Positions 2,727 to 61,448 of a stretch of DNA of 64,000 bases are shown piece by piece. The translations under genes and the position numbers were made by a program. Origin of the DNA: a bacterium (GTDB lineage Bacteria > Patescibacteriota > Minisyncoccia > Phycocordibacterales > Zambryskibacteraceae); assembly GCA_023266935.1 (NCBI GenBank), contig JAHFOF010000002.1, forward strand, positions 4,469 through 68,468. The letters run 5' to 3'. Below the pieces are notes generated by a model. The model saw nothing but the letters and a program-made list of their open reading frames with translations, had not been told where the DNA came from and searched no databases. Each line of letters begins with the position of its first letter. The first letter of the stretch is position 1.

Positions 2727-4265
2727 ATGAGTTTAACTTTATCTAAAACTGATTTTATTTCATATAGAGAGTGTGCGAAAAATGTCTGGGTCAAATGGCA
2801 CAAACCTGGTATATATAGCAATTTTCCTATTTCTGACTTTGAAAGATCTCTCGGAGAGATGGGAAATGAGGTAGAAAAACTGGCTCAAGGAATGTTTTCT
2901 GAAGGAATCTTGATAAAAGGTAGAGGACCAGAGGCTCAAAGAAAAACAAAAAAAATAATCAAGGAGGAGACACCGGCTATTTTTCAAGCCGTGTTTGAGA
3001 CAACCAAATATCTTGCTGCGACTGATGTTTTAAAGTGGAACAACGAAAATAAATCTTATGATTTGTATGAAATCAAAATGTCCTCAACAGAAGAAAGTGA
3101 CACAAATGGAGAAAAGAAAATAAACAAAAAGAAAGAAGAGCAGTATGAATACGACCTAGCTTTTCAAACCAATGTGGTTGAAAAAAGTGGAATTAAATTA
3201 AATAAAAAATATTTGGTTAGATTGAACAAGGATTATGTCCGCATGGGCGAGCTTGATTTTAATGAAGGTGCTTTGTTTATTATCGAAGATAAAACTGAAA
3301 CCGTAGATAATATCCGCAGTGAAGTAGAAAATGAGATGGAGGATGCCTATGAATATTTATCCAAAGAGAGAGAGCCTGTTGGACCTTGTTCTTGTTTTTA
3401 TAAGGGTCGTTCAGCACATTGCACCACCTTCTCGTACAATAACCAAACGATGAATGTTCCAGAATATAGTGTCCATGATTTGAACAGGATCGGTCAAAGT
3501 AAAAAATACCTCACAGAATTACTCGATTCAGGGATTTTACATATCAAGGATGTACCTATAGACGATCGATTAAAAAACAAAAAACTTAATCAGGTATTGG
3601 TTCATAAATCTGGCAAACCGATAATCAATGGGGAAACTCTCAAAGAAGAATTAGATCAATTAACTTTTCCTCTATATTTTCTCGACTACGAGACATACCC
3701 AACTGCCATTCCTCCATTCAGTGGATATAAGCCGTATCAACATATTGTTTTTCAATATTCTCTTCATGTTTTAGAATCCGCTGATTCTGTGCCCCAACAT
3801 TATGAATGCCTAATTTTGGATGGAGATCCAGCTGAAAGGATTGCCGAGAGTTTGCATAAAAATATTGGTAATAAAGGCAGTCTCATCTCTTGGTATGCAA
3901 CATTTGAAAACTCTAGAAATAAAGAGTTGGGCAGAATGTTACCTCAATACAAAAAGTTTTTTGATGATTTAATCGCCCGAACATATGACCTAATGAAAAT
4001 CGTCGAAGACCAACATTATGTTCACCCAGATTTCCACGGTCGTTCATCCATAAAAAAAGTTTTGCCCGCATTGATAAAAGATTTGTCTTATAAGACCTTA
4101 GAAATACAAAGCGGAACTGAAGCTATAGAGGCCTATAAACAAATCACCACTGGAGAACTCAAAGAAAAAGAAGTAGATAAAAAAAGAAAAGAGATGCTCG
4201 AATATTGCAAACTCGATACAGAAGCAATGCTTCGTTTGTGGAGATTTTTTAAAGGTTTGGTTTAA
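2727..4265 (+). CDS. DUF2779-like nuclease. It combines an N-terminal PD-(D/E)xK/Cas4-like module with a Cys cluster and a C-terminal DEDDy 3'-5' exonuclease domain.
   Basis: The N-terminus SKTDFISYRECAKNVW resembles DUF2779/RecB-like starts, and a Cys cluster PCSCFYKGRSAHC follows. The C-terminal half carries Exo I LDYET and Exo III YCKLDTEAMLRLW. Confidence 0.5.
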   Translation: MSLTLSKTDFISYRECAKNVWVKWHKPGIYSNFPISDFERSLGEMGNEVEKLAQGMFSEGILIKGRGPEAQRKTKKIIKEETPAIFQAVFETTKYLAATDVLKWNNENKSYDLYEIKMSSTEESDTNGEKKINKKKEEQYEYDLAFQTNVVEKSGIKLNKKYLVRLNKDYVRMGELDFNEGALFIIEDKTETVDNIRSEVENEMEDAYEYLSKEREPVGPCSCFYKGRSAHCTTFSYNNQTMNVPEYSVHDLNRIGQSKKYLTELLDSGILHIKDVPIDDRLKNKKLNQVLVHKSGKPIINGETLKEELDQLTFPLYFLDYETYPTAIPPFSGYKPYQHIVFQYSLHVLESADSVPQHYECLILDGDPAERIAESLHKNIGNKGSLISWYATFENSRNKELGRMLPQYKKFFDDLIARTYDLMKIVEDQHYVHPDFHGRSSIKKVLPALIKDLSYKTLEIQSGTEAIEAYKQITTGELKEKEVDKKRKEMLEYCKLDTEAMLRLWRFFKGLV

Positions 4266-5841: not shown

Positions 5842-7467
5842 TTACACTATTTTTCTTTTCTCTTCATCTATCTTCTGACTCAGAGCATGAATTTTCTGCA
5901 CAAGCTCCTCGATTTCGTTCGGCCCTCGAGCGAGCTCTGCCTGCAAACCGGACCGTTCTTCTTCAAGAATAGTAATGGTCAAACGTTGTTTGAGTTCAAC
6001 TTCTTCTTTTTGAGAAATTTCAAATTCTTTGGTCGATTCGTCTACCTGACCTTTCCAAAAACTGATTTCTTCCAATCTTTCTTCGATTTGTTCCCGACGA
6101 GTATGAACCTTATCTTTTTTTTCTTCTTGAATATCTTCAGTTTGCTGAACGTTTTTTATTTGAAGAATATCTGGAATTTTTGATTTTCTCAAATCATCCC
6201 AAATAATTTCTTCTTTTAATCCTGATTTTTTGGATATAAGAGAAACAAAGTGAGAGCGTTCTATAGAACTTTCCAATAAAGTAAGCAATGGCAAAACTTT
6301 TGCATTTATGGCTTTACCTAATTTTCTATCATCCTTCTCGTTTTTAATTATTTTATTAAGAACAAATTCAATACTGTGGGTGGATTTTCGAAGTACTTCT
6401 TTCCATTCTTCTGGGTCTTTTTTGGACAAATCTGCTGGGTCTCTTCCTTCGGGAAGTTCAGCAATCTTAACCTCCATACCCAAAGAAAGACCTAAAATAG
6501 AGCTTTTTTCAGCTGCTTTTTCCCCCGCCAGATCTCCATCAAACGCCAGAATCAGCCTAGGAGAAAGTCTTTTTAATCTTTCCAAATGAGTTTGAGTAAA
6601 GGCTGTGCCAGACGAAGCTACAACATTTTTCACACCGACCTGATGAGAAAGGACCAAATCTAATTGTCCTTCAACCAAAACAGAATAATTTTTCTTTCGA
6701 ATTTCATCCTTGGCTTTGTCTAGCCCATACAACACTTCACTTTTTATAAACAAACTTGTTTCTGGAGTATTTAGATATTTTGGTTCTGTATCTTTTTCCA
6801 ACGCTCGTCCAGAAAAGGCAATCACCTTACTGTTTACATCAAAGATAGGGAAAATAATTCGACCTCTGAAAACATCATATGGTGTTCCTTCTCCAGAGAT
6901 TTGTGGATTTTCTTTTTCTTCTTTTTGTGGTTGTTTTATTAACCCCGCCTTTAACAAAACCTCCTTGGAATAACCCACTGCACTCAGATGAGAAAAAATA
7001 GAGCGCCATTCTGATGGAGCGAAACCGAGTCTCCATAATTTAATGGAGTCTTTAGAAACCCCTCGAGATTCTAAATATTTTAAGGCTTCAGTATTTTTCT
7101 CTAATTCAGATTGGAAGAAAATGGTGGCATCTTCGAGAGCATTGTAGAATTTATCTTTTTCAGATTTTGATTCTCCTCTATTAGAATATTCTAATTCTAC
7201 ACCTGCTCGTTCGGCTAAAGTTTTTAATGCTCCTTTAAAATCAACTCCCTCCATCTCTTCGACAATACTAAAAATATCTCCTTTCGCCCCGCAACCAAAA
7301 CAGTAATAACTTTGCCTTGAAGGCGACACGAAAAAGGATGGAGTTTTTTCATTGTGGAACGGACATTTACCTTTGAAGTTCTGGCCCGCTTTTTCGAGTT
7401 TGAGGTATGAGCTTACAACTTCAACGATATCTAGTCGTTCTTTGATTGAATCGACTGTGCTTCGCAT
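5842..7467 (-). CDS. dnaG: DNA primase DnaG
   Basis: Zn-ribbon CPFHNEKTPSFFVSPSRQSYYCFGCG, TOPRIM motifs EGQLD and DGD, and a coiled-coil C-terminus. The N-terminus overlaps the rpoC 3' end by 37 nt. Confidence 0.9.
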   Translation of the reverse strand: MRSTVDSIKERLDIVEVVSSYLKLEKAGQNFKGKCPFHNEKTPSFFVSPSRQSYYCFGCGAKGDIFSIVEEMEGVDFKGALKTLAERAGVELEYSNRGESKSEKDKFYNALEDATIFFQSELEKNTEALKYLESRGVSKDSIKLWRLGFAPSEWRSIFSHLSAVGYSKEVLLKAGLIKQPQKEEKENPQISGEGTPYDVFRGRIIFPIFDVNSKVIAFSGRALEKDTEPKYLNTPETSLFIKSEVLYGLDKAKDEIRKKNYSVLVEGQLDLVLSHQVGVKNVVASSGTAFTQTHLERLKRLSPRLILAFDGDLAGEKAAEKSSILGLSLGMEVKIAELPEGRDPADLSKKDPEEWKEVLRKSTHSIEFVLNKIIKNEKDDRKLGKAINAKVLPLLTLLESSIERSHFVSLISKKSGLKEEIIWDDLRKSKIPDILQIKNVQQTEDIQEEKKDKVHTRREQIEERLEEISFWKGQVDESTKEFEISQKEEVELKQRLTITILEEERSGLQAELARGPNEIEELVQKIHALSQKIDEEKRKIV

Positions 7468-19496: not shown

Positions 19497-19640
19497 ATGG
19501 CCTACAAGAAAAAGGCTCCGAGCAAGGCCTACTTGGCCAAACTCAAAGCAAAGAAGAGCAAGAAGAGGCGTCGGGTTTCTCGGCGGCCTCGTGCCCAGCT
19601 AGTAATCACCATCTACGTTGTAGTCAAGAAGGTGAGATGA
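19497..19640 (+). CDS. Small polybasic protein, 47 aa (MAYKKKAPSKAYLAKLKAKKSKKRRVSRRPRAQLVITIYVVVKKVR), GC-enriched, not in the ORF track. Coordinates are +/-1 nt.
   Basis: ATG is preceded by an AGGTG SD-like element, with a plausible TTGATT-17-TAATGT promoter in the rnr 3' end. The stop is followed 8 nt later by a clean intrinsic terminator. GC is ~50% against a ~37% background. Confidence 0.4.
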   Translation: MAYKKKAPSKAYLAKLKAKKSKKRRRVSRRPRAQLVITIYVVVKKVR

Positions 19641-19647
19641 TTCACAG

Positions 19648-19670
19648 CCCGCTAACCAGCGGGTTTTTTA
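19648..19670 (+). terminator. Intrinsic terminator (CCCGCT-AACC-AGCGGG plus TTTTTT)
   Basis: A 6-bp stem, 4-nt loop and 6-T run read directly. Confidence 0.6.
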
Positions 19671-19709
19671 TTTGTTAAATTCAACTTCATCATTAAGCCC
19701 AAATTTTAT

Positions 19710-19729
19710 CACTACATTATAATGTAGTG
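19710..19729. promoter_or_regulatory. Perfect 20-bp palindrome CACTACATTATAATGTAGTG centred on TATAAT (operator-like), downstream of the YerC-like regulator gene
   Basis: The sequence equals its own reverse complement. A second copy, matching 19 of 20 positions, sits at 20200..20219 in the regulator's promoter. Confidence 0.6.
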
Positions 19730-19786
19730 TATTAAGGTTTTGTAATACGAAATAGTTAGATAAACAATGGACACAATCAACGGGGA

Positions 19787-20188
19787 TCACTTCCTCCCCC
19801 ATGATTTCCAATGCCCCCTTCCATATCTCGGTGGCATGCCTATGAGTATAAATTTTTCGATTTGTTCAAGAATATCTTTCTTATATTCTCCTGTGATATT
19901 TAAAGTGGCTTTATATTTGTTATTCTCAATTTTCATAGCCAATTTAGAGACAGTCGTTGGACTCACATGCAAACTTTCAGTTATTACGTGTTGAGGGATT
20001 TCCTTAGCCAGTAGAAATATTATAGCGAGCCGTTTAGCGAGCATCACTTTCTCAGTTCTAGTAAATAATTCTCCTGCCATATACTTGAATTTACCTTGCT
20101 TTCCAGCTTTTTCTATTGATTTTATAAATTGATCAAAGAGCTTATTAAAAATTTCTTTGCCCAACTTCTTATTTGACACATGAGTCAT
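19787..20188 (-). CDS. TrpR-like YerC/YecD-family HTH DNA-binding protein
   Basis: The segment TRTEKVMLAKRLAIIFLLAKEIPQHVITESLHVSPTTVSKLAMKIE fits the YerC/TrpR HTH pattern (MLxxRLxxxxLLxxGxxxxxIxxxxxxSxxTISR). Palindromic operators flank the gene. Confidence 0.55.
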   Translation of the reverse strand: MTHVSNKKLGKEIFNKLFDQFIKSIEKAGKQGKFKYMAGELFTRTEKVMLAKRLAIIFLLAKEIPQHVITESLHVSPTTVSKLAMKIENNKYKATLNITGEYKKDILEQIEKFILIGMPPRYGRGHWKSWGRK

Positions 20189-20199
20189 AATGTCAATAT

Positions 20200-20219
20200 T
20201 ACTACATTATAATGTAGTG
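20200..20219. promoter_or_regulatory. Second copy of the palindromic operator (TACTACATTATAATGTAGTG), 12 nt upstream of the regulator start codon and inside the divergent intergenic region
   Basis: An 18-bp perfect inverted repeat ACTACATTATAATGTAGT with TATAAT at the dyad. It lies between divergent genes 19787..20188 (minus) and 20311..20544 (plus). Confidence 0.6.
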
Positions 20220-20310
20220 ACAACAAATGTATAAGATGCAAAAAACTTGATTTCGTATTAGTACAAGAGTAGGGTGTTTCTAGACAAAATACTCAAACTA
20301 TGAGGTTCCG

Positions 20311-20544
20311 ATGCCGAAGTATCGAATAGAGTATTCAAACCATCCTTCGTTTACATATGACTTGAAAGGTGACACAGAGGCATATGATCTTTTTTCTGAA
20401 ATATACCACGATTATCTTATCTGCTTGCCAGGAGTTGGTAAGCCTAAGTGTCTAGTAAAAATCTTTGACGGTACAGAAATTGAAATATACAGCAGAATAT
20501 TTGGATATGTTCACAATATCCTGGATACAACTCTACCTGACTAG
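20311..20544 (+). CDS. Hypothetical 77-aa protein, divergently transcribed from the YerC-like regulator
   Basis: GAGGT SD 6 nt upstream of the ATG. No recognisable domains. Confidence 0.45.
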   Translation: MPKYRIEYSNHPSFTYDLKGDTEAYDLFSEIYHDYLICLPGVGKPKCLVKIFDGTEIEIYSRIFGYVHNILDTTLPD

Positions 20545-20553
20545 TAGAGTTTT

Positions 20554-22773
20554 TTATTTAGCCACCTCGACTGCTTGGGTGAATTCGATAGAGAGAAGTT
20601 TGGAGATGCCGGTTGAACCCATAGTCACACCGTATATTATTCCCGCTCGACTCATGGTTTCTCTGTTGTGTGTGATTAAAATTAGTTGAGAATGTTTTGA
20701 AAGTTTTTCTACCAAATCTCCATAAATCCTCGAATTGGCTTCGTCGAGCGCAGCATCTGTCTCATCAAGAATAATAAAAGGGGGAGGATTCACCGCAGAA
20801 ATAGCAAACAATAACGCAATAGATGTTAAGGCTCTCTCTCCACCAGAAAGCATCATCAAACCCTTTATCTTCTTCCTCGGCAAATTCACGGCGATGTCTA
20901 ACCCTTCTTCAACAATCTCCTCATCATCTAAGGCATCTTCAACCATCTCTGTCTCCCCTTCTTCGAGCATTACTTCGGCCTTGCGTTTTTTATCTTTAGT
21001 CAAAATGAGTCTTGCATCTCCCCCGCCGAACATTGAACTAAACAGTTCACCAAACTCTTTATTAATTTTAGTAATACCAGAAGAAAATTCTACAGCCAAT
21101 CTTTCTTCCAAATCTTTCACTAATGTTTTTAAAGATTCGGCAGATTTATCCAAATCCAAAAGTTCTCGAGCGAGGAACTGGTCACGCTCGCTCACATCTT
21201 TGTACTCCTTCATCACTTCTCCTGACCCCACTACACCCGAATCTTCCAGACGAATCTTTAGTTTCCCTATCTCACGTTTCTTCTCTTCTTGAACATTTCT
21301 ATTTTCTTCTAAAATATTAATCGCGGTTTTAAAATCTTTAAAATGTAAGGCGTCTGCCCCTACAAGTGCTCCAACCTCAGTCATTTCCCGCTTAAATTCT
21401 TCATCTTCTTTCTTGAGTATCTCTTCTTTGGATTTAATCAGATTCAGTTTTGAAATGAGTTCATTTTCTTCGGACATAATTCTGAATACGGCTTTCTCTG
21501 CATCTCGACTCGAATCTTTTTCCATCTCAATCCCCTTCTTTAATTCTTCGTATCGCACACGAAGGGCCTGCTCCTTTGCTCCAGCTGTCTCAATTTCTTT
21601 TTCTATATTTTCCTTTTCTTTAATTAATTCTCTAACAGATTTTTCAGCATCAAGAAGAACAGAAGAATCCGCAGAATACTTTTGATTTTTAATAAACTCT
21701 TTTATCTTATTAAAAACATCCACCAATGTTCCGAGGAGTGACACTTCTGAATATAAATCTTCTATATCCTTTAACCGAACAAGCTTATGTTCGTCTGAAG
21801 TAGCTAACTCTTTTTGCTTTCTAATAATTCTCTCTTCTGCGTCAATCGAACCTTCGACCTTGCCCAGATTTCTAACCAAAGCATCTTTATGAACTCTCAC
21901 CCCACTCATCTCTGACTCAAGGTTCAAAACCAAATAATCTTTCTTTTCTTCTTTGGCCACATCTTCAAGAATTTTCCTTGCATCAGCTAATTCTTTTGAA
22001 AGTTTCTGGAGTTGTTCATCGATTGGTTTTTTCTCCTCACCTGACATCTTCTTCGATAAACTAATATACTGGTCTTCATGATAAAAATAATCTTTAGCCA
22101 ACTCTATAAGACTCGTTTTCATGCTTTCCATCTTCTCTAGTTTCTCAACTTGTTTATGAAGAAACTTTAAATGAGGAGCAATTTCTTTTCTCAACAACTC
22201 TACTTGAGCAATGTTCTCAAAAGTTTTTTTTAATTTACGCTCACTTTCTAATCTTTTGTATTGATACAGACGAAGTCCGAGGGCATCTTCTATCATCGCT
22301 TTGCGTTCCTTTGTAGAAGCATTGAGTATCTTATCTGCTTCTCCTTGGGAAATAATGTGGTGCCCCGATGCACCGATGTGTGCTTGGAGAAGAAGCTCGA
22401 CCACATCTTTCAAGCGAACAGTAGAACCATTTATAGAATAATCATTTACCCCGTCTCGATGCACCACACGTTCGATAACTACTTCAGGAAAGTCTACAGC
22501 GAAGGTTTTGTCTTTATTATCAAACGTCACCTTAACTGATGCCCTGTTTGCCCTAGATTCTCCTCCGGCTCCATTAAAGATGAGGTCTTCTCCTTTCTTG
22601 CCTCGCAGAGATTTGATTGATTGCTCACCCAAAACAAATCTAAAGGCTTCAGCCACATTTGATTTACCAGAACCATTTGGTCCAACTATAGAAGAGATGG
22701 GGGAATTAAATTCGAGAGTACTCAACTTGGCAAACGATTTAAATCCCGAAAGTTCGATTGATTTTAAATACAT
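20554..22773 (-). CDS. smc: SMC-family chromosome segregation ATPase (short form, 739 aa)
   Basis: Walker A GPNGSGKSN at the N-terminus, a long coiled-coil, ABC signature LSGGERALTSIAL, and Walker B/D-loop ILDETDAALD. Confidence 0.75.
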   Translation of the reverse strand: MYLKSIELSGFKSFAKLSTLEFNSPISSIVGPNGSGKSNVAEAFRFVLGEQSIKSLRGKKGEDLIFNGAGGESRANRASVKVTFDNKDKTFAVDFPEVVIERVVHRDGVNDYSINGSTVRLKDVVELLLQAHIGASGHHIISQGEADKILNASTKERKAMIEDALGLRLYQYKRLESERKLKKTFENIAQVELLRKEIAPHLKFLHKQVEKLEKMESMKTSLIELAKDYFYHEDQYISLSKKMSGEEKKPIDEQLQKLSKELADARKILEDVAKEEKKDYLVLNLESEMSGVRVHKDALVRNLGKVEGSIDAEERIIRKQKELATSDEHKLVRLKDIEDLYSEVSLLGTLVDVFNKIKEFIKNQKYSADSSVLLDAEKSVRELIKEKENIEKEIETAGAKEQALRVRYEELKKGIEMEKDSSRDAEKAVFRIMSEENELISKLNLIKSKEEILKKEDEEFKREMTEVGALVGADALHFKDFKTAINILEENRNVQEEKKREIGKLKIRLEDSGVVGSGEVMKEYKDVSERDQFLARELLDLDKSAESLKTLVKDLEERLAVEFSSGITKINKEFGELFSSMFGGGDARLILTKDKKRKAEVMLEEGETEMVEDALDDEEIVEEGLDIAVNLPRKKIKGLMMLSGGERALTSIALLFAISAVNPPPFIILDETDAALDEANSRIYGDLVEKLSKHSQLILITHNRETMSRAGIIYGVTMGSTGISKLLSIEFTQAVEVAK

Positions 22774-22797
22774 ATTACCAAATTATTATAGCAGACC

Positions 22798-29703: not shown

Positions 29704-31440
29704 ATGCAAGATATTGAAAAAGTACGACACTCACTCGCCCATTTGCTTGCGGCAGCAGTTTTAGAACTTTATCCAGACACTTTAAATACGATCGGCCCAG
29801 CCGTGGACAACGGCTTTTATTATGATTTTGAATTCAAAGAACCACTCAAGGATAGTGATTTGAAAGAGATAGAGAAAAAAATGAAAAAGCTTTCTAACAC
29901 TTGGACAAGCTTTGAGAAAAAAGACGTCTCGACAGATGAAGCAAAAGAAACTTTTAAAAACAACCCGTATAAACTTGAATTGATTGAAGAAATTTTAACC
30001 AAAGGTGAACCTCTCACTCTCTACACATCGGGCAACTTCACCGATCTTTGCCGAGGAGGACATGTGCAGAACATGAAAGATGTTTCTATGGATGCTTTTA
30101 AACTTTCTCGCATTGCTGGTGCTTATTGGCGTGGAGATGAGAAGAACAAAATGCTCACTCGCATTTATGGTTTGGCTTTTAATACTAAAGAAGAATTAGA
30201 TGAATACGAAAAGCTTCAGGAAGAAGCCCGGAAACGCGACCATCGAAAATTGGGTAAAGAATTAGATCTTTTCACTTTCTCTGATTATGTGGGCAGTGGA
30301 CTCCCCCTCTACACTCCACGAGGAGCATTGATCAGAAGACTTTTGAACGAATATGTCGAATCTCTTCAAACCGAAGCCGGATATACTCAAGTCTGGACTC
30401 CGCAGATAGCCAAAGCCTCGCTCTTCAAACAATCAGGTCACTACGAAAAATACAAAGATGACATGTTTCGTGTAGTTTCAAATTATTCTGATGAAGAATT
30501 TTTCTTGAAACCGATGAACTGTCCCCAACATACCCAAATCTATGCAAGCCAAATGAGAAGCTACCGCGACCTCCCTATCCGCTACACCGATTTCGCCATG
30601 TTATACAGAGATGAACAACCAGGACAACTTTCTGGTCTCGCTCGCGTTCGTTCATTCTCTCAAGACGATTGTCATATTTTCTGCAGAGAAGACCAAGTAG
30701 ATAAAGAGATAGATGTCGCTTTGAAAATGACTAAACAAATTCTCGAAACTTTTGGTTTGAAATATAAATATAGACTTTCTACTCGTGATCCAGAGAAAAA
30801 AGATAGCTATCTTGGAGACCCGAAGATTTGGGACAAAGTTGAAGAGTGGGCAGAAAAAATCATGAAGCGAAATAAAATTGAATTCGTGCCCGGACCAGGA
30901 GAAGCCGCTTTCTATGCGCCCAAGATGGACCTCATCGCCACAGATGCCTTGGGTCGAGAATGGCAACTTTCTACCGTGCAGATTGATTATGTGATGCCCG
31001 AAAGGTTTGATCTCACTTATACAGATTCAGACGGCAAACAAAAGCGTCCTGTGATGCTCCACCGAGCCATCATCGGTTCAGCCGAAAGGTTTATGATGAT
31101 TATCCTCGAACATTTTGCTGGCAATCTCCCTCTGTGGCTCTCTCCTATACAAATAAAGGTTATTCCTGTTCGCACAAACCACAATGAATACGCAGAAAAA
31201 ATTGTAAAAATCTTAGAACAAAATGGTGTTCGAGTTGATTTTGATAATAAAGATGAAAACTTGGGTGCAAAAGTTCGAGATGCCAAGAATCAAAAAATTC
31301 CCTATTGGGTAGTCATTGGAGACAAAGAAATTGAATCAAACAAAGTTACCCTTGAATCTCGAGATGCTGGAAACTTGGGACAGATATCCACTGAAGATCT
31401 CGTATCAAAAATCAATAAGGAAATAGAAAATAAAAACTAG
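29704..31440 (+). CDS. thrS: Threonyl-tRNA synthetase lacking the N-terminal TGS domain
   Basis: It begins at the editing/second additional domain with the HxxxH motif (RHSLAHLL). Class II motifs are present (FRDEQPG motif 2 region) along with a C-terminal anticodon-binding domain. Confidence 0.9.
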   Translation: MQDIEKVRHSLAHLLAAAVLELYPDTLNTIGPAVDNGFYYDFEFKEPLKDSDLKEIEKKMKKLSNTWTSFEKKDVSTDEAKETFKNNPYKLELIEEILTKGEPLTLYTSGNFTDLCRGGHVQNMKDVSMDAFKLSRIAGAYWRGDEKNKMLTRIYGLAFNTKEELDEYEKLQEEARKRDHRKLGKELDLFTFSDYVGSGLPLYTPRGALIRRLLNEYVESLQTEAGYTQVWTPQIAKASLFKQSGHYEKYKDDMFRVVSNYSDEEFFLKPMNCPQHTQIYASQMRSYRDLPIRYTDFAMLYRDEQPGQLSGLARVRSFSQDDCHIFCREDQVDKEIDVALKMTKQILETFGLKYKYRLSTRDPEKKDSYLGDPKIWDKVEEWAEKIMKRNKIEFVPGPGEAAFYAPKMDLIATDALGREWQLSTVQIDYVMPERFDLTYTDSDGKQKRPVMLHRAIIGSAERFMMIILEHFAGNLPLWLSPIQIKVIPVRTNHNEYAEKIVKILEQNGVRVDFDNKDENLGAKVRDAKNQKIPYWVVIGDKEIESNKVTLESRDAGNLGQISTEDLVSKINKEIENKN

Positions 31441-36072: not shown

Positions 36073-36139
36073 AACTTCTAATTATACAGAAAGCTTGAAA
36101 AAACTGAAATAATGGCTTATAATCTGATTTCTCTTAGAT

Positions 36140-57368: not shown

Positions 57369-58367
57369 TTATACCAGCAATTTTTTGACTGCCTTTAGTA
57401 TATCTTTCTCCCCCATCCCATAATGTTCTATGAGCTCGTCTGGGGTACCAGATTGACCAAATTGATCTCGCACTCCAATAAACTCAATAGGTACTGGATA
57501 TTTTGAAGACAAGCATTCGGCCACGGCTGAACCCATGCCTCCAGCGATCTGATGCTCTTCGACAGTCACCACTCTACCCGTCCTCTTCACTGCATTTATA
57601 ATAGTTTCTTCATCGAGAGGTTTAATAGTTGAAAGATTCACCACGATACTGCCGATGTTTTCTGCTTCCAAACTTTTTGCAGCTAAAAGTGCTTTATAGA
57701 CCAATGCTCCTGTGGCAATGATTGTCACTTTGTGGTCCTGCCTACCGGCAGGCAGGTTTTCTGATTCATAAAATATTTGGGCCTTGCCTATTTCAAACAG
57801 AGTTTCTTCTGTGGTCATCACCGGAGTTTTCTCTCGAGCCAGACGAATATAAACTGGCGCATCAACTTCTACGCAAGCAATCGTCGCTTTCTTCGCTTCA
57901 ACTGCATCGCACGGAGAAATCACAATCATTCGAGGAATAACACGAGTGAGAGCGATGTCTTCTATGGCTTGATGGGTTCCTCCATCGGGCCCAACAGAAA
58001 CTCCAGAATGTGAACCGATGATTTTTACTGGGCGATTGTTGTAGCAAATTGTTGTCCTGATTTGTTCCCAATTTCTGCCGGGAGAAAACATCGCATAACT
58101 GGCGATAAAAGGAATCTTGCCCATCGCTGACATCCCACTCGCCACACTGGCAAGATTTTGTTCAGCTACCCCCATCTCTATAAATCGATTTGGAAACTTT
58201 TCTTTAAAAGCCAGCACTTGAGCGGATTCAGTCAGGTCTGCACAGAGAGCTACTACTTGAGGGTTTTTCTCTCCAGCGACGACCAATCCTTCTCCAAATC
58301 CTTTGCGAATAGGAATCTGTTCACAATCCTTATCAAATATTTTTTTGTTTAGGGTTTTGTTAAGCAT
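57369..58367 (-). CDS. Transketolase, C-terminal subunit (split transketolase)
   Basis: Pyrimidine-binding and C-terminal domains (FIEMGVAEQNLASVASGMS, GSHSGVSVGPDGGTHQ). Confidence 0.85.
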   Translation of the reverse strand: MLNKTLNKKIFDKDCEQIPIRKGFGEGLVVAGEKNPQVVALCADLTESAQVLAFKEKFPNRFIEMGVAEQNLASVASGMSAMGKIPFIASYAMFSPGRNWEQIRTTICYNNRPVKIIGSHSGVSVGPDGGTHQAIEDIALTRVIPRMIVISPCDAVEAKKATIACVEVDAPVYIRLAREKTPVMTTEETLFEIGKAQIFYESENLPAGRQDHKVTIIATGALVYKALLAAKSLEAENIGSIVVNLSTIKPLDEETIINAVKRTGRVVTVEEHQIAGGMGSAVAECLSSKYPVPIEFIGVRDQFGQSGTPDELIEHYGMGEKDILKAVKKLLV

Positions 58368-58391
58368 TTCATTTATAGTGAGCTAGTCGAA

Positions 58392-59258
58392 CTACTCGTG
58401 TTCAGATTTTATTTTTCCGCCTAATGTTCTTAATTCTTTTAGTGCTTGTTCCGCTTCTTTGGGTGAAGGTGGCTTACCATGCCAGCGATAATCTCGTTCA
58501 AACTCTTTCACTCCCTTGCCTGGGATAGTGTGAGCGATGATGACCGTGGGCTTCTCAAAAATTGTTTTACTCATTTCAAACGCATCAGCGATTTCTTCCA
58601 TATTGTGCCCATCAATCTCTATCACATGCCAATTAAAGGCGCGCCATTTATCCGAAAGAGATTCGAGAGGCATGATGTCTTCAGTAAATCCGTCTATTTG
58701 AATATTGTTTCTATCTACTACAGCTACTAAATTATGGAGTTTGTTTTTCCCTGCGAGCATAACTGCTTCCCAACTTTGACCTTCATCGAGTTCTCCGTCA
58801 CTCATCAAACAATAAATTCTCCTTTGTCCATCTTTAATATCTATTTTGTCTGCGAGCGCCATCCCTACCGCTTGAGAAAGTCCTGAACCGAGTGGGCCAG
58901 AACTTGTCTCAAGCATTGAGAGATAATCTCTGTGGGGATGACCTTGTAAACGTGAACTGAATTTGCGCAGAGTTAATAATTCTTCTTTAGGGAAATATCC
59001 AGCATAGGCCATCGTCGCGTATAAAACCGGGCAAATGTGCCCGTTCGAAAGCACTAATCTATCTCTATCTTCCCAAAATGGATTCTTCGAATCGTGTTTG
59101 AGTGTATGAAAATATAAAACGGTGAAGATATCCGCCATCCCAAGCGGTCCAGCCGTGTGTCCGGAGCCTGCTGTGACCAACATCTCTATAATTGATTCAC
59201 GAATATCATTCGCTGTTTCTTCGAGTTTTATTTTCTTTTCTTCAAAAAGATCTTTCAT
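58392..59258 (-). CDS. Transketolase, N-terminal TPP-binding subunit (split transketolase)
   Basis: TPP-binding motifs (GSGHTAGPLGMADIF, GDGELDEGQSWEA). Confidence 0.85.
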   Translation of the reverse strand: MKDLFEEKKIKLEETANDIRESIIEMLVTAGSGHTAGPLGMADIFTVLYFHTLKHDSKNPFWEDRDRLVLSNGHICPVLYATMAYAGYFPKEELLTLRKFSSRLQGHPHRDYLSMLETSSGPLGSGLSQAVGMALADKIDIKDGQRRIYCLMSDGELDEGQSWEAVMLAGKNKLHNLVAVVDRNNIQIDGFTEDIMPLESLSDKWRAFNWHVIEIDGHNMEEIADAFEMSKTIFEKPTVIIAHTIPGKGVKEFERDYRWHGKPPSPKEAEQALKELRTLGGKIKSEHE

Positions 59259-59259
59259 T

Positions 59260-59964
59260 TTAATTTGTAAGTTCTTGAAAATCTAACAAAGCTTCTTCGG
59301 GATCACCAGATGTGAAGATGGCCGAGCCGATGATGAGACGGTTCGCGCCGGCTTCGATTAATTCACTCGCATTTTCTAGATTAATCCCCCCATCGACTGA
59401 TACAATCGTTTCTGGAAACTTCTCTTTTAGCTCTTTAATTCTATCAAATATTTTCTGATCGAATGGATGGCCTTGCTCACCAATCTTCTCTATACTCATG
59501 AGGTGAATAAAATCTGCTTCGAGGACATGCGGATAAATTTTCTCCATTTGAGTTTCTATGTTCACCGCGAGCCCCACTTCTACCCCGAGGTGACTGTTGT
59601 TTTTACTAAATCTGTTTTTTAAAATAGAGAGTGTTCGACTGAGTTCATCATCATCAAATGATTCAAAATGAATGATGATTCTTTCTGCACCAGCAAGAAT
59701 CCAATCTTCAATAATCTCTTTTGGATTCTTCACCATCAGATGCACTTCGAAACTTGTTTCTTCCCAAAAAGGAAACCCTTCTACTTCGTTCACAATTTTC
59801 AAAAAATCTGTTTGATCTCCATCATACGGCCAATTAGATTTTGGAGTCAAAGTACTATTCGTCACATCTATGTGAACCATCGGTGCATGCCCAACCACGA
59901 GAGAAAGCTTTTCTTCTAAATCAGAAAAATCTTCGGGTAGAATCGCTGGGATAATCTCAACCAT
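59260..59964 (-). CDS. rpe: Ribulose-phosphate 3-epimerase
   Basis: TIM-barrel motifs MVHIDV..., HLMVKNP and VSVDGGIN, plus pentose-phosphate context. Confidence 0.75.
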   Translation of the reverse strand: MVEIIPAILPEDFSDLEEKLSLVVGHAPMVHIDVTNSTLTPKSNWPYDGDQTDFLKIVNEVEGFPFWEETSFEVHLMVKNPKEIIEDWILAGAERIIIHFESFDDDELSRTLSILKNRFSKNNSHLGVEVGLAVNIETQMEKIYPHVLEADFIHLMSIEKIGEQGHPFDQKIFDRIKELKEKFPETIVSVDGGINLENASELIEAGANRLIIGSAIFTSGDPEEALLDFQELTN

Positions 59965-60421
59965 TTAATTCATTCATCTTATTTATCCTCCTCACATGTC
60001 GTTCATCACCAGAAAACGGAATTTCTAACCAATCTTTCACTGCACTGAACGCTTCTTCTTCGGTTATGAACCTTGCTCCAAGGGCTAGGATATTTGAATC
60101 ATTATCATTTCTTGTCGCTTTAATAATAGAAGTATTAGTGTTTGGTCCATAATACACGCTTGCCCGAACGTCTTTAAACTTGTTTGCGACCATCGCCTCA
60201 CCTTGGCCAGAACCACCCAGAATAATCCCTCGAACCTCTGTAGAATTTGGATTTTTTGAAACCTCTTCGGCCACTTTCTCCATAAAGTCTGGGTAATCAT
60301 CATAAGCATCATATTCGAATGCTCCCTTATCTACGACTTCGTGTCCTAAATTTTCTAAGAATGGAATCAATTTACCCTTGAGTTCGAAACCCGCATGATC
60401 TGCCCCAATAAAAATTTTCAT
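59957..60421 (-). CDS. rpiB: Ribose-5-phosphate isomerase B (RpiB/LacAB family)
   Basis: MKIFIGADHAGFELK N-terminus and a GILIxGSGxG-type motif (GIILGGSGQGEAM). Confidence 0.85.
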   Translation of the reverse strand: MKIFIGADHAGFELKGKLIPFLENLGHEVVDKGAFEYDAYDDYPDFMEKVAEEVSKNPNSTEVRGIILGGSGQGEAMVANKFKDVRASVYYGPNTNTSIIKATRNDNDSNILALGARFITEEEAFSAVKDWLEIPFSGDERHVRRINKMNELNG

Positions 60422-60422
60422 A

Positions 60423-61448
60423 TTATTTTGATTTACCCACTTCTAATACATGTAGAAGCAGGGTGTGAGTATACCCCATCTCGTTGTCATACCAAGCGAG
60501 AACTTTTACTAAATTCCCCCCTACCACCCTAGTGAGAGAAAGGTCGGCCACCGAACCGAATTCAGAACCTATGATATCTGATGAAACAAGCTGTTCCGTA
60601 GTCACCGCAAACACCTTCGACCATCTTGGTTCAAGAGATGCTTTGTTCAAAATTGAATTCACTTCTTCAACTGTTGTATTTCTCTTGGCGATAAAAGTCA
60701 CATCGACAATAGAACCAGCGATGACTGGCACACGCATCGCTATCCCATCAAACAAACCTTCGAGTTTGGGGAAAGCCTTGGTCACCGCGATGGCTGCACC
60801 AGTCGAAGTAGGCACGATATTATACGCCCCTGCCCGTCCTTCACGAACATCGCGTTTGTTCGCTGAATCTACGATGGTTTGATTAATCGTATTAGCATGA
60901 GCAGTATTCAAAACTGCTTTCTCTATCCCAATCCCTTCGTCGAGAATAGCGATGAGAGGTGAAGCGGCGTTCGTTGTACAAGATGCATCCGAAGTAATGA
61001 GACACCCATTGAATTTACTTTCATTCACACCCATCAAAACTGTAGCCCCAGCGATCCCAGCAGGATCATCTTTCATCGGAGCGGTCACCACCACCCTTTT
61101 TGCTCCCGCTTCCAAATGAACCTTGGCTTTTTCATATGTAGTGAACAACCCAGTGGATTCTACAACTACATCGATGCCTAAATTTTTCCACGGGAGTTTT
61201 TGCGGGTCCTTTTCAGACAAATAAATAATTTCTTTTCCATCTAAAACTAGTTTTGTTTTATCAGAAGAAACAGAGGATGTGAACTGTGCTGGACCATAAA
61301 CCGAATCATGTTTAATGAGATAAACGATATTATCTATATCTGCAAGGTCATTCACCGCAACTACTTCAATTTCTGGATTATTTAGAGCAAGCTTCACAAA
61401 GCTACGGCCTATTCGTCCTGCGCCGTTCACGGCAACTCTTATTTTCAT
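60423..61448 (-). CDS. gap: Glyceraldehyde-3-phosphate dehydrogenase
   Basis: Rossmann NGAGRIGR and the catalytic SDASCTTNAASP. Confidence 0.9.
   Translation of the reverse strand: MKIRVAVNGAGRIGRSFVKLALNNPEIEVVAVNDLADIDNIVYLIKHDSVYGPAQFTSSVSSDKTKLVLDGKEIIYLSEKDPQKLPWKNLGIDVVVESTGLFTTYEKAKVHLEAGAKRVVVTAPMKDDPAGIAGATVLMGVNESKFNGCLITSDASCTTNAASPLIAILDEGIGIEKAVLNTAHANTINQTIVDSANKRDVREGRAGAYNIVPTSTGAAIAVTKAFPKLEGLFDGIAMRVPVIAGSIVDVTFIAKRNTTVEEVNSILNKASLEPRWSKVFAVTTEQLVSSDIIGSEFGSVADLSLTRVVGGNLVKVLAWYDNEMGYTHTLLLHVLEVGKSK

Follow-up and report, generated by a model that had tools for sequence, protein, structure and literature searches.

The closest described relatives of the system presented here are TrpR and HisR, both of the Trp-repressor family. 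TrpR of E. coli acts as a dimeric helix-turn-helix (HTH) repressor; its operator, a palindrome of about 20 bp (GTACTAGTTAACTAGTAC), overlaps the promoter from which trpR itself is transcribed. HisR (YerC of Bacillus subtilis) is a TrpR-family histidine repressor of less than 100 amino acids, with a lineage-specific 20-bp palindromic operator (consensus cacTTTAnnnnnnTAAAgtg) and a regulon composed of the his operon and histidine transporters (PMC9413887). Both proteins bind 20-bp palindromes and autoregulate, and an upstream autoregulatory site is present at about half of the hisR genes; the passages of this source on hisR that were searched mention upstream sites only and no downstream operator (PMC9413887). 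In the literature searched, we found no account of the palindromes reported below or of a Trp-repressor family gene with an operator on either side.

The stretch of DNA analyzed here (64 kb, hereafter the window), from an ultra-small patescibacterium, encodes on its reverse strand (19787-20188) a TrpR-family HTH protein of 133 amino acids that belongs to a Patescibacteria subfamily. The preliminary description had called this regulator YerC/TrpR-like, and the TrpR part of that label held. The protein scores 37.9 bits against the Pfam profile PF01371 (Trp_repressor; gathering score 27), with residues 18-96 aligned to profile positions 3-84 of 88, and the precomputed PF01371 assignment is present in 36 of 37 homologs. 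Its AF2 monomer model (pLDDT 80) is all-helical with seven helices, and the top 17 Foldseek matches in the PDB were all E. coli TrpR (probability 0.94-1.0, target-normalised TM 0.65-0.72), and below these came a mixture of further TrpR chains and the HisR-like structures 3kor, 3frw, and 3g1c. As modeled, the fold is TrpR-like, and helices D and E make up the HTH. The YerC part of the label was imprecise, as the YerC/YecD NCBIfam model gave no match to the regulator at E <= 1 and the HisR-like chains of the PDB matched its sequence only distantly (2.7e-5 for 3kor to 5e-4). The TrpR equivalog TIGR01321 reached 23.1 bits, below its cutoff of 67.25. The regulator is neither a TrpR ortholog nor a YerC/HisR ortholog; it belongs to a large family of Patescibacteria, comprising about 1,500 clusters (50% identity, E <= 1e-10), whose members have additional sequence at the C-terminus.

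The HTH occupies residues 66-88 and is followed by extra helices (93-117) and a disordered basic tail (118-133), which make the regulator about 35 residues longer at the C-terminus than E. coli TrpR. The start codon is backed by the family-invariant N-terminus M-[T/P]-H-V-S. In an hhalign alignment to TrpR, residue 78 corresponds to the DNA-contacting residue Ala80, and Thr81, Arg84, and Arg54 of TrpR have the conserved equivalents T79, K82, and R53. Two residues of the TrpR ligand pocket, Arg54 and Thr44, are likewise represented, by R53 (invariant) and T43. No trp, aro, or his genes are linked to the regulator, whose neighbors encode RNase R (RNB, CSD2, and S1 domains), SMC, and, in other genomes, varied housekeeping functions.

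Both flanks of the gene carry ACTACATTATAATGTAGT, a perfect 18-bp palindrome. The downstream copy is part of the perfect 20-bp palindrome CACTACATTATAATGTAGTG (19710-19729; predicted operator D), located between two convergent gene ends and 57 nt past the stop codon of the regulator (gap 19730-19786). The upstream copy, TACTACATTATAATGTAGTG (20200-20219; predicted operator U), is 19/20 palindromic with a perfect 18-bp core at 20201-20218, lies 11 nt (20189-20199) 5' of the regulator ATG, and overlaps the predicted core promoter. The two dyads are 490 bp apart, and TATAAT can be read on both strands at each of them. The preliminary description had found both copies, although it gave the gaps as 58 and 12 nt; its 122-nt divergent intergenic region (20189-20310), with a GAGG Shine-Dalgarno sequence for the divergent ORF, was confirmed. 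The outer boundary of the region on the D side is an intrinsic-terminator-like hairpin with a T-run (19646-19665, forward strand) at the end of the convergent RNase R transcription unit. The only Rfam match, to Trp_leader on a terminator hairpin, was sub-threshold and judged spurious.

U and D are the two longest perfect palindromes of the window and the only matches with at most three mismatches, against 0.00 expected (100 shuffles). Weaker copies of the 16-mer core did not exceed chance in the 64 kb, with 1 found versus 2.65 expected at four mismatches and 17 versus 18.9 at five. We also searched four homologous loci of 16-20 kb each (about 77 kb in total) for further copies and found none; altogether the search covered about 5-10% of the length typical of such genomes. 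The preliminary description had stated that a generic repeat or MITE, or a protein failing the family HMM, would speak against its reading. Neither was encountered, as the window holds two copies, the four homologous loci none extra, and the protein passes PF01371. A metagenome scan with the exact 18-mer returned 66 stretches, none of which encoded a family member in the fetched DNA (tblastn, hmmsearch). About half of them came from one locus in an organism of the human gut, others were portions of longer, unrelated hairpins, and the scan gave no information on the regulon.

The bracketing of the gene is conserved across the family. Two matching palindromes flank it in 70 of 79 family loci, as compared with 1 of 129 neighboring control genes from the same loci (Fisher p = 5e-44). 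The palindrome itself varies from genome to genome: the U and D sites of one locus are alike at a mean of 21.8 of 24 positions, while sites of different loci are alike at 11.4 of 24. Palindromy is at least 0.88 out to position 9, stays at about 0.75 out to position 13, and falls to background by about position 17. In the 70 loci, the median distance between the upstream dyad and the ATG is about 20 nt (9-30 nt in most), and the two dyads are 432-602 bp apart; the median distance from the stop codon to the downstream dyad is about 22 nt. The family operator consensus is TACGATA/TATCGTA, the slash marking the dyad. Several genomes hold two paralogous units, and the operators of these paralogs usually differ.

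Variation in the palindromes is matched by variation in the protein. Among all residue-by-base pairs, mutual information was highest between residue 78 and base -4 (z = 17), followed by base -5 (z = 13). Serine at this position goes with CG in 34 of 36 loci, glutamine with TG in 11 of 11, and threonine with CA in 10 of 14. On a neighbor-joining tree built without the HTH columns, residue 78 and the bases changed on the same branch 12 times, against 2.5 expected (p = 1e-8). A direct comparison is offered by the syntenic orthologs L150 and L151, one of which combines SPTT with TACAATA and the other SPST with TACGATA, at both sites in each case. On these alignments, the identity of residue 78 follows that of the bases at 4-5 bp from the dyad, and the two have switched together repeatedly and independently. 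Because the recognition helix covaries with the half-site, the data strongly support the view, already put forward in the preliminary description, that the protein binds these palindromes as its operators. The bracket and the covariation together give computational evidence for what characterizes the TrpR family, namely a palindromic operator of about 18-20 bp read through the recognition helix.

We consider it fairly probable that the region is a self-contained autoregulatory operator-gene-operator module of a Patescibacteria-specific branch of Trp repressors, with U on the promoter and D as an auxiliary site. The 133-aa protein, which the analogy with TrpR and HisR suggests to be a homodimer and probably to need a ligand, would bind both palindromes (about 20-26 bp). 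Residue 78 would read the bases 4-5 bp from the dyad, residues 66-68 of the first HTH helix (near the equivalent of TrpR Arg69) would read bases 8-9, and the invariant N-terminal arm may read the TA/TA center. Occupancy of U, over the core promoter, would result in negative autoregulation. D would be an auxiliary operator that most likely cooperates with U through a DNA loop of about 0.45-0.5 kb, serves as a protein roadblock insulating the gene from read-through and from convergent transcription, or does both. Family membership, the conserved bracket, and the covariation of protein and DNA are what the analysis demonstrates, and from there we infer repression, ligand dependence, and looping or roadblocking; for D, the data are equally compatible with a loop, a roadblock, or another role.

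The regulator shares PF01371 with E. coli TrpR, which is also the closest predicted fold, and TrpR binds a palindrome at its own promoter, as proposed for the regulator at U. The operator of TrpR differs from the TACxxTA/TAxxGTA of the regulator, and the regulator family keeps a second predicted operator shortly after the stop codon. In the window palindrome, the outer cac...gtg resembles the HisR consensus cacTTTAnnnnnnTAAAgtg (PMC9413887). The inner half-site differs from that of HisR, as does the protein with its 133 residues, extra helices, and tail, and the HisR arrangement of such an operator upstream of his biosynthesis or transport genes was not found for CACTACATTATAATGTAGTG.

For D, the nearest parallels are repressors that loop DNA with the help of an auxiliary operator: LacI (O1-O2 at 401 bp), GalR (OE-OI), DeoR, and lambda CI (OL-OR flanking cI). 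Judged from sequence, the module likewise has two cognate operators, about 0.45-0.6 kb apart and one of them at a promoter, which corresponds to the spacing of tens to hundreds of bp typical of this class, and as in lambda the repressor gene lies between its operators. LacI, GalR, DeoR, and lambda CI have demonstrated tetramer or octamer interfaces, for which the family-specific helices 93-117 would be the candidate counterpart. The lambda operators both lie on outward promoters, whereas convergent gene ends often enclose the downstream site of the module. In the 70 loci, the distance between U and D showed no helical phasing (Rayleigh p > 0.2), which at such distances is weak evidence either way.

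A consensus scan predicted two promoter-like sites for the regulator on the reverse strand, matching at 10/12 and 9/12 positions. The first (20206-20233) consists of a -35 TATACA (20233-20228), a 16-nt spacer, and a -10 TATAAT (20211-20206) at the dyad; the alternative consists of TTGTCA (20223-20218), 16 nt, and TAATAT (20201-20196). Operator U would cover core promoter elements in either prediction. Genes of this genome generally have -10-like hexamers 5-15 nt 5' of the ATG, and Shine-Dalgarno sequences are rare. The consensus -10 at the dyad noted in the preliminary description is present in the window but is not general: the TATAAT center is confined to the lineage of the window (the window and locus L013), the commonest center among relatives being GATATATC, which is not a canonical -10, and others being TTTAAA, GTTAAC, or GCGC. 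The argument for promoter overlap is one of position, because no -35 element is conserved at a fixed spacing from the dyad across the family loci and the commonest center is not a canonical -10. As a test for leaderless mRNA, the depletion of Shine-Dalgarno sequences in family genes (1 of 70) does not discriminate, since the motif is rare in these genomes anyway (about 8% overall).

The palindromes could also be ordinary members of a larger regulon, with U controlling both the regulator and the divergent 77-aa gene and D an outward or antisense promoter, as the preliminary description suggested. TATAAT on both strands of both dyads would suit such an arrangement, as would the 77-aa ORF itself (20311-20544, forward strand), which has its GAGG 5 nt 5' of the ATG and a terminator-like hairpin at 20529-20551. 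Third or fourth palindrome copies occur within about 1.5 kb in 13 of the 70 loci (most within 1 kb), and in three loci, L039 (a methyltransferase), L058, and L009, a third copy brackets the adjacent gene as well. We nevertheless find this explanation unlikely. The 77-aa ORF matches nothing in Pfam, NCBIfam, or PHROG and has no homolog among 5.8 billion proteins, its single-sequence AF2 model (pLDDT 40) is uninformative, and the closest loci (L001, L002) have no room for it; it is an orphan that adjoins the module and stands outside the conserved unit, and its proposed co-regulation was not borne out. Across the family, both sites are kept although the upstream neighbor is divergent in only 24 of 67 loci and the downstream neighbor convergent in 31 of 66. 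Nor does D behave as the operator of an outward gene, since the consensus scan gave no promoter-like match at D in the window. The convergent downstream neighbor in 31 of 66 loci and the unrelated housekeeping character of the neighbors, the largest cluster of which covers 7 of 79 loci, indicate that D does not serve a neighboring gene. Synteny is seen within lineages, with the same SMC / RNase R context and orientation in the window, L001, and L002, and a pentose-phosphate context in L147, L150, and L151 that reflects lineage synteny only.

Within the 64-kb window and the approximately 77 kb around four homologs, the main detectable target of the module is the module itself, because no other site was found there; a wider regulon may exist elsewhere in the genome. 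This could be taken further, to a module without any targets beyond itself, an autonomous one-protein, two-site unit kept across much of Patescibacteria. Such a unit might have a structural or insulating role (a DNA loop bridged by the protein over about 0.5 kb, or paired roadblocks that serve as a chromosomal landmark or insulator), act as a ligand-sensing timer, or merely persist selfishly. We give this stronger version little credence.

It is very improbable that the palindromes are mainly RNA or DNA hairpins, such as stem-loops stabilizing or terminating the mRNA at its 5' or 3' end, or cruciforms, with protein binding secondary or absent. The palindromes are perfect and in some loci 40-62 bp long, far beyond the expected need of a single dimer, and at position 10 the U and D copies are each symmetric yet unlike one another in 9 loci, points that speak for a hairpin. 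The 3'-UTR segment of the window also folds somewhat better than shuffles (z = -2.85). However, G-T mismatches (G-U in RNA) are not in excess over A-C mismatches in the sense-strand arms, no T-run follows the downstream site, and in some loci only 9-12 nt separate the dyad and the ATG, where a 5' hairpin would abut the start codon. A pure hairpin role would also leave unexplained why a DNA-contacting HTH residue shows the strongest covariation.

Finally, there is only a very slight chance that the region is a mobile or selfish cassette with the palindromes as terminal recombination or transposition sites (cf. REP/RAYT, IS200/IS605, integron attC). REP/RAYT genes are likewise flanked on both sides by palindrome copies, the gene and its two palindromes are the sole conserved unit while neighbors vary by genome, several genomes have two such units, and L150 and L151 have a Y1 transposase gene at a distance of 2-7 kb. 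REP palindromes are dispersed in tens to hundreds of copies around a HUH/Y1 transposase gene, in contrast to the two copies in 64 kb, none of them dispersed, around the gene for an HTH protein whose modeled 133-aa TrpR fold has no catalytic domain. Y1_Tnp is absent from the window and 78 other loci, the differing operators of same-genome paralogs argue against recent transposition copies, the SMC / RNase R context and orientation are kept in three loci, and a cognate operator would be expected to covary with the recognition helix, as observed. A phage origin of the regulator was rejected, as no relatives were found in viral contigs or PHROGs.

To our knowledge, Patescibacteria have very few transcription factors, and we know of almost nothing on their gene regulation. 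The family described here is a large one in which the predicted binding site can be read from the genome beside each gene. Its recognition rule appears simple and appears to have evolved repeatedly, with Ser, Thr, or Gln at residue 78 corresponding to CG, CA, or TG, and its layout, in which operators bracket the gene, is unusual and strongly conserved. This raises the question of why a second operator should lie just past the stop codon of an autoregulated gene. The family is a natural source of orthogonal repressor-operator pairs, and if the self-targeting reading is true, the orthogonal specificities of same-genome paralogs would be non-cross-reacting protein-DNA pairs with a one-residue code.

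The regulator gene (19787-20188, minus strand) is bracketed by two palindromes. The downstream copy, D (CACTACATTATAATGTAGTG, 19710-19729), is a perfect 20-bp palindrome, and the upstream copy, U (TACTACATTATAATGTAGTG, 20200-20219), is identical to it at 19 of 20 positions and contains a perfect 18-bp core. This bracketing had been noted in the preliminary description and holds, with slightly corrected distances: 57 nt rather than 58 separate the stop codon from D, and 11 nt rather than 12 separate U from the ATG. The 122-nt divergent intergenic region and the GAGG located 5 nt ahead of a 77-aa ORF (20311-20544, plus strand) were also borne out. A scan of the 64-kb window allowing up to three mismatches returned just these two matches, and the same scan of 100 dinucleotide-preserving shuffles returned none. 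U and D are the two longest perfect palindromes of the window, and degenerate copies of the 16-bp core, sought in a more permissive scan, were no commoner than expected by chance. Two other perfect palindromes, ATTAGAATATTCTAAT (16 bp, 7180-7195) and AAGATAGCTATCTT (14 bp, 30800-30813), occur once each in the window.

The 133-aa regulator passes the Pfam Trp_repressor model (37.9 bits; gathering score 27) and fails the NCBIfam TrpR equivalog (23 vs 67), so it was rejected as a TrpR ortholog. It was likewise rejected as a HisR/YerC ortholog, as no YerC/YecD match was found with NCBIfam; of the earlier label "YerC/TrpR-like", only the second half is retained. An AlphaFold model built with 37 homologs (pLDDT 80) shows seven helices plus a basic tail that is disordered. 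In the PDB, E. coli TrpR takes all the top places among its matches (target-normalised TM 0.65-0.72), with the HisR-like structures 3kor, 3frw, and 3g1c coming next. Profile alignment with TrpR gave the equivalences T43/Thr44, R53/Arg54, H67/Arg69, P77/Ile79, T78/Ala80, T79/Thr81, S81/Thr83, and K82/Arg84, among which are the TrpR pocket arginine and the six DNA-contact positions given in PMC9413887. Homologs of 130-145 aa, from Patescibacteria MAGs, all begin with the invariant M-[T/P]-H-V-S and contain the motif TEKxMLAKRLA; an exhaustive profile search (E <= 1e-10) collected 1,528 cluster representatives of the family at 50% identity. Taken together, the model scores, the TrpR-like fold, and the homologs place the regulator in the TrpR family, within a separate and large branch that is lineage-specific and has an extended C-terminus.

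The main result is that the bracket is conserved. We fetched 80 loci carrying relatives of the regulator from species-representative genomes; the analyzable set, counting the window, was 79 loci. In 70 of these 79 loci, a palindrome just before the ATG is paired with a near-identical one just after the stop codon, whereas the same procedure found only 1 of 129 neighbouring genes from these loci to be bracketed (Fisher p = 5e-44). In the matched-pair loci, the median distance is ~20 nt from dyad to ATG, with a lower bound of 9-12 nt, and ~22 nt from stop codon to dyad; the U and D dyads are 432-602 bp apart, with no helical phasing of this spacing. The palindrome itself varies among genomes: the commonest core is TACGATA|TATCGTA, with variant half-sites (TACAATA, TATGATA, TACAGTA) and variant centres (GTTAAC, TTTAAA, GCGC). 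Copies within a locus agree at 21.8 of 24 positions, compared with 11.4 of 24 between loci. Symmetry is nearly complete up to 9 bp from the dyad, stays at about 75% to 13 bp, and reaches background by ~17 bp, a decay that sets the functional site at ~20-26 bp.

In a minority of sites, the palindrome reaches 40-62 bp. Some of the U and D copies of loci L013, L044, L038, and L059 are perfect palindromes of 36-62 bp, far exceeding a dimer operator. The two copies of L013 are unlike at their outer positions, yet each is still perfectly symmetric. L059 carries two interleaved palindrome types around one family gene (2799-3836), with type A (ATTGTATCGATATATCGATACAAT) at 2799 and 3332 and type B (AATTATGTCGATATATCGACATAATT) at 2875 and 3836; its upstream site of type A is perfectly palindromic over 62 bp, and the stretch 3332-3836 appears tRNA-rich.

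Covariation across the 70 loci connects the protein to these sites. Among all residue-by-base pairs, the highest mutual information was found between residue 78 and bases -4 (z = 17) and -5 (z = 13). The first position of the recognition helix to vary is residue 78 (motif S-P-[T/S/Q]-T-V): CG accompanies Ser in 34 of 36 loci, TG accompanies Gln in all 11, and CA accompanies Thr in 10 of 14. On a neighbour-joining tree of 138 branches built with the HTH columns excluded, there are 18 branches with a change at residue 78 and 19 with a change in the dinucleotide; both change together on 12 branches, compared with 2.5 expected (p = 1e-8), and the change from Ser to Thr with CG to CA occurred at least five separate times. 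Even the syntenic orthologs L150 and L151, located between transketolase and ribulose-phosphate epimerase genes, differ in this way, with SPTT and TACAATA in one and SPST and TACGATA in the other, at both flanking sites. Residues 66-68 of HTH helix 1, adjoining the Arg69 equivalent, covary with the outer bases -8/-9, which presumably agrees with the docking of TrpR on its operator. His3, in the N-terminal arm, associates with a TA|TA centre (Fisher 3e-7 over the 70 loci, a value not corrected for phylogeny), and in all 11 cases where the protein has Gln, Asn, Lys, or Arg in place of His3, the centre is a different one (TTTAAA, GTTAAC, TGCA, TCGA); this hints, and is only suggestive, that the arm may read the operator centre. 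From this covariation, the palindromes are predicted to be the regulator's own operators.

The palindromes could instead be pure hairpins, and the very long ones of some loci remain unexplained. However, this reading is disfavoured by the covariation with regulator residues and by the arm mismatches, whose lack of any G-U bias argues for a constraint at the level of double-stranded DNA and against one on an RNA hairpin.

In the 64-kb window there were no predicted operator sites besides U and D, and four longer homologous stretches (16-20 kb apiece, adding up to about 77 kb) likewise held no extra ones. Of the 70 loci, 13 had a third or fourth copy within 3 kb on either side, with a chance expectation below one. 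Most of these copies lie less than 1 kb from the gene (the furthest at ~1.5 kb), either in tandem to U or D or beyond one adjacent gene, which is then bracketed too. Such genes encode a SAM-methyltransferase-like protein in L039 (3453-4326) and unannotated ORFs of 258 aa in L058 (3464-4250) and 139 aa in L009 (2329-2966). Paralogs in the same genome usually have unlike operators. As far as the data reach (the 64 kb, the about 77 kb, and the locus flanks scanned), the sites are concentrated on the regulator gene itself. Matches to ACTACATTATAATGTAGT in metagenomes (L082-L146) comprise ~33 contigs, mostly human-gut, with the 18-mer at one conserved locus and no TrpR-like gene nearby; in L083, L101, L112, and L115 (groundwater, lake), it lies within palindromes of up to ~30 bp, and here too the DNA retrieved encodes no family member. 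Such matches may be hairpins of unrelated origin or orphan operators. The bracketed gene is unlikely to be a mobile cassette (REP/RAYT, IS200, or attC kind), given that the regulator has no catalytic domain and no viral relatives, that dispersed palindrome copies are lacking, that the genomic context is stable in the closest relatives, and that the Y1 transposase located near L150 and L151 is absent from the window and the 78 other loci.

The regulator gene has no conserved neighbours: the largest neighbour cluster is limited to 7/79 loci, and the adjacent genes are those for ThrRS, ArgRS, GyrB, RuvA, UvrB, IF-2, SHMT, transketolase, and SecF. Of the upstream neighbours, 43 run in the same direction as the regulator gene and 24 are divergent; of the downstream ones, 35 are co-directional and 31 convergent. 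Since both sites are retained whatever the orientation, D does not primarily serve a downstream gene, nor U a divergent one; the outward, antisense, or divergent-gene control proposed earlier is not general. In L147, L150, and L151, from related genomes, the family gene lies inside a transketolase/ribulose-P epimerase/RpiB/GAPDH cluster (at positions ~7-13 kb of each locus); the corresponding cluster of the window (57369-61448) is ~37 kb from the regulator.

For the divergent 77-aa ORF, a search of 5.8 billion clusters gave no homolog; it has no family match, and its AF2 model has a pLDDT of 40. It is missing from the closest loci, where the gap between the SMC gene and the regulator is merely ~75-117 nt. 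The ORF (region 20311-20551, plus strand) nevertheless has a GAGG Shine-Dalgarno motif, unusual here (3/37 other window genes), and a terminator-like hairpin with a T-run over the stop codon. It resembles an insertion, specific to the lineage, that separates the SMC gene from the regulator module. On the other side, an extremely basic 47-aa ORF (MAYKKKAPSKAYLAKLKAKKSKKRRRVSRRPRAQ..., 19497-19640, plus strand) without Pfam or NCBIfam match is flanked by the RNase R gene and a clean intrinsic terminator (19646-19665). An Rfam Trp_leader hit at 19613-19672 was rejected as sub-threshold (25 bits; gathering score 41) and seems to match the terminator hairpin only.

The consensus -10 hexamer reported at the dyad is present in the window but is not a general trait: besides the window, only L013 has TATAAT there. 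Operators of the Thr type hold good -10-like hexamers (TATAAT, TATATT, TATACT), whereas the majority centre GATATATC does not. In the window, two promoter-like matches fall at U: in TATACA-16-TATAAT the -10 coincides with the dyad, and in TTGTCA-16-TAATAT the operator extends across the spacer; D has none. Shine-Dalgarno-like motifs occur in only 3 of 37 window ORFs of at least 120 aa (start regions such as 22774-22793, 36073-36092, and 48994-49013), and at many of these starts a TATAAT-like hexamer precedes the ATG by 5-15 nt (tgcTATAATaatttggtaatATG ahead of the SMC gene is one case), which suggests that leaderless or very short-leader mRNAs may be the norm in the host genome. The 9-12 nt lower bound of the dyad-to-ATG distance fits such mRNAs.

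By its position, U is predicted to overlap the core promoter, and its occupancy should repress transcription of the regulator gene itself; PMC9413887 describes autoregulation of trpR and of many hisR genes. D is often located where two convergent genes end. Most economically, it would act as an auxiliary operator looping to U, for which the family-specific helices 93-117 would be a candidate tetramerisation surface, or as a roadblock insulating the unit.

Full-text literature searches found the work on HisR (PMC9413887) and nothing on the regulator's family or on gene-bracketing operators. Autoregulation in the TrpR family is itself already known. What appears to be new is a predicted autoregulator of this family whose gene is flanked by two conserved operators that co-evolve with the protein and whose recognition code can be read; gene regulation in its phylum is essentially unexplored.
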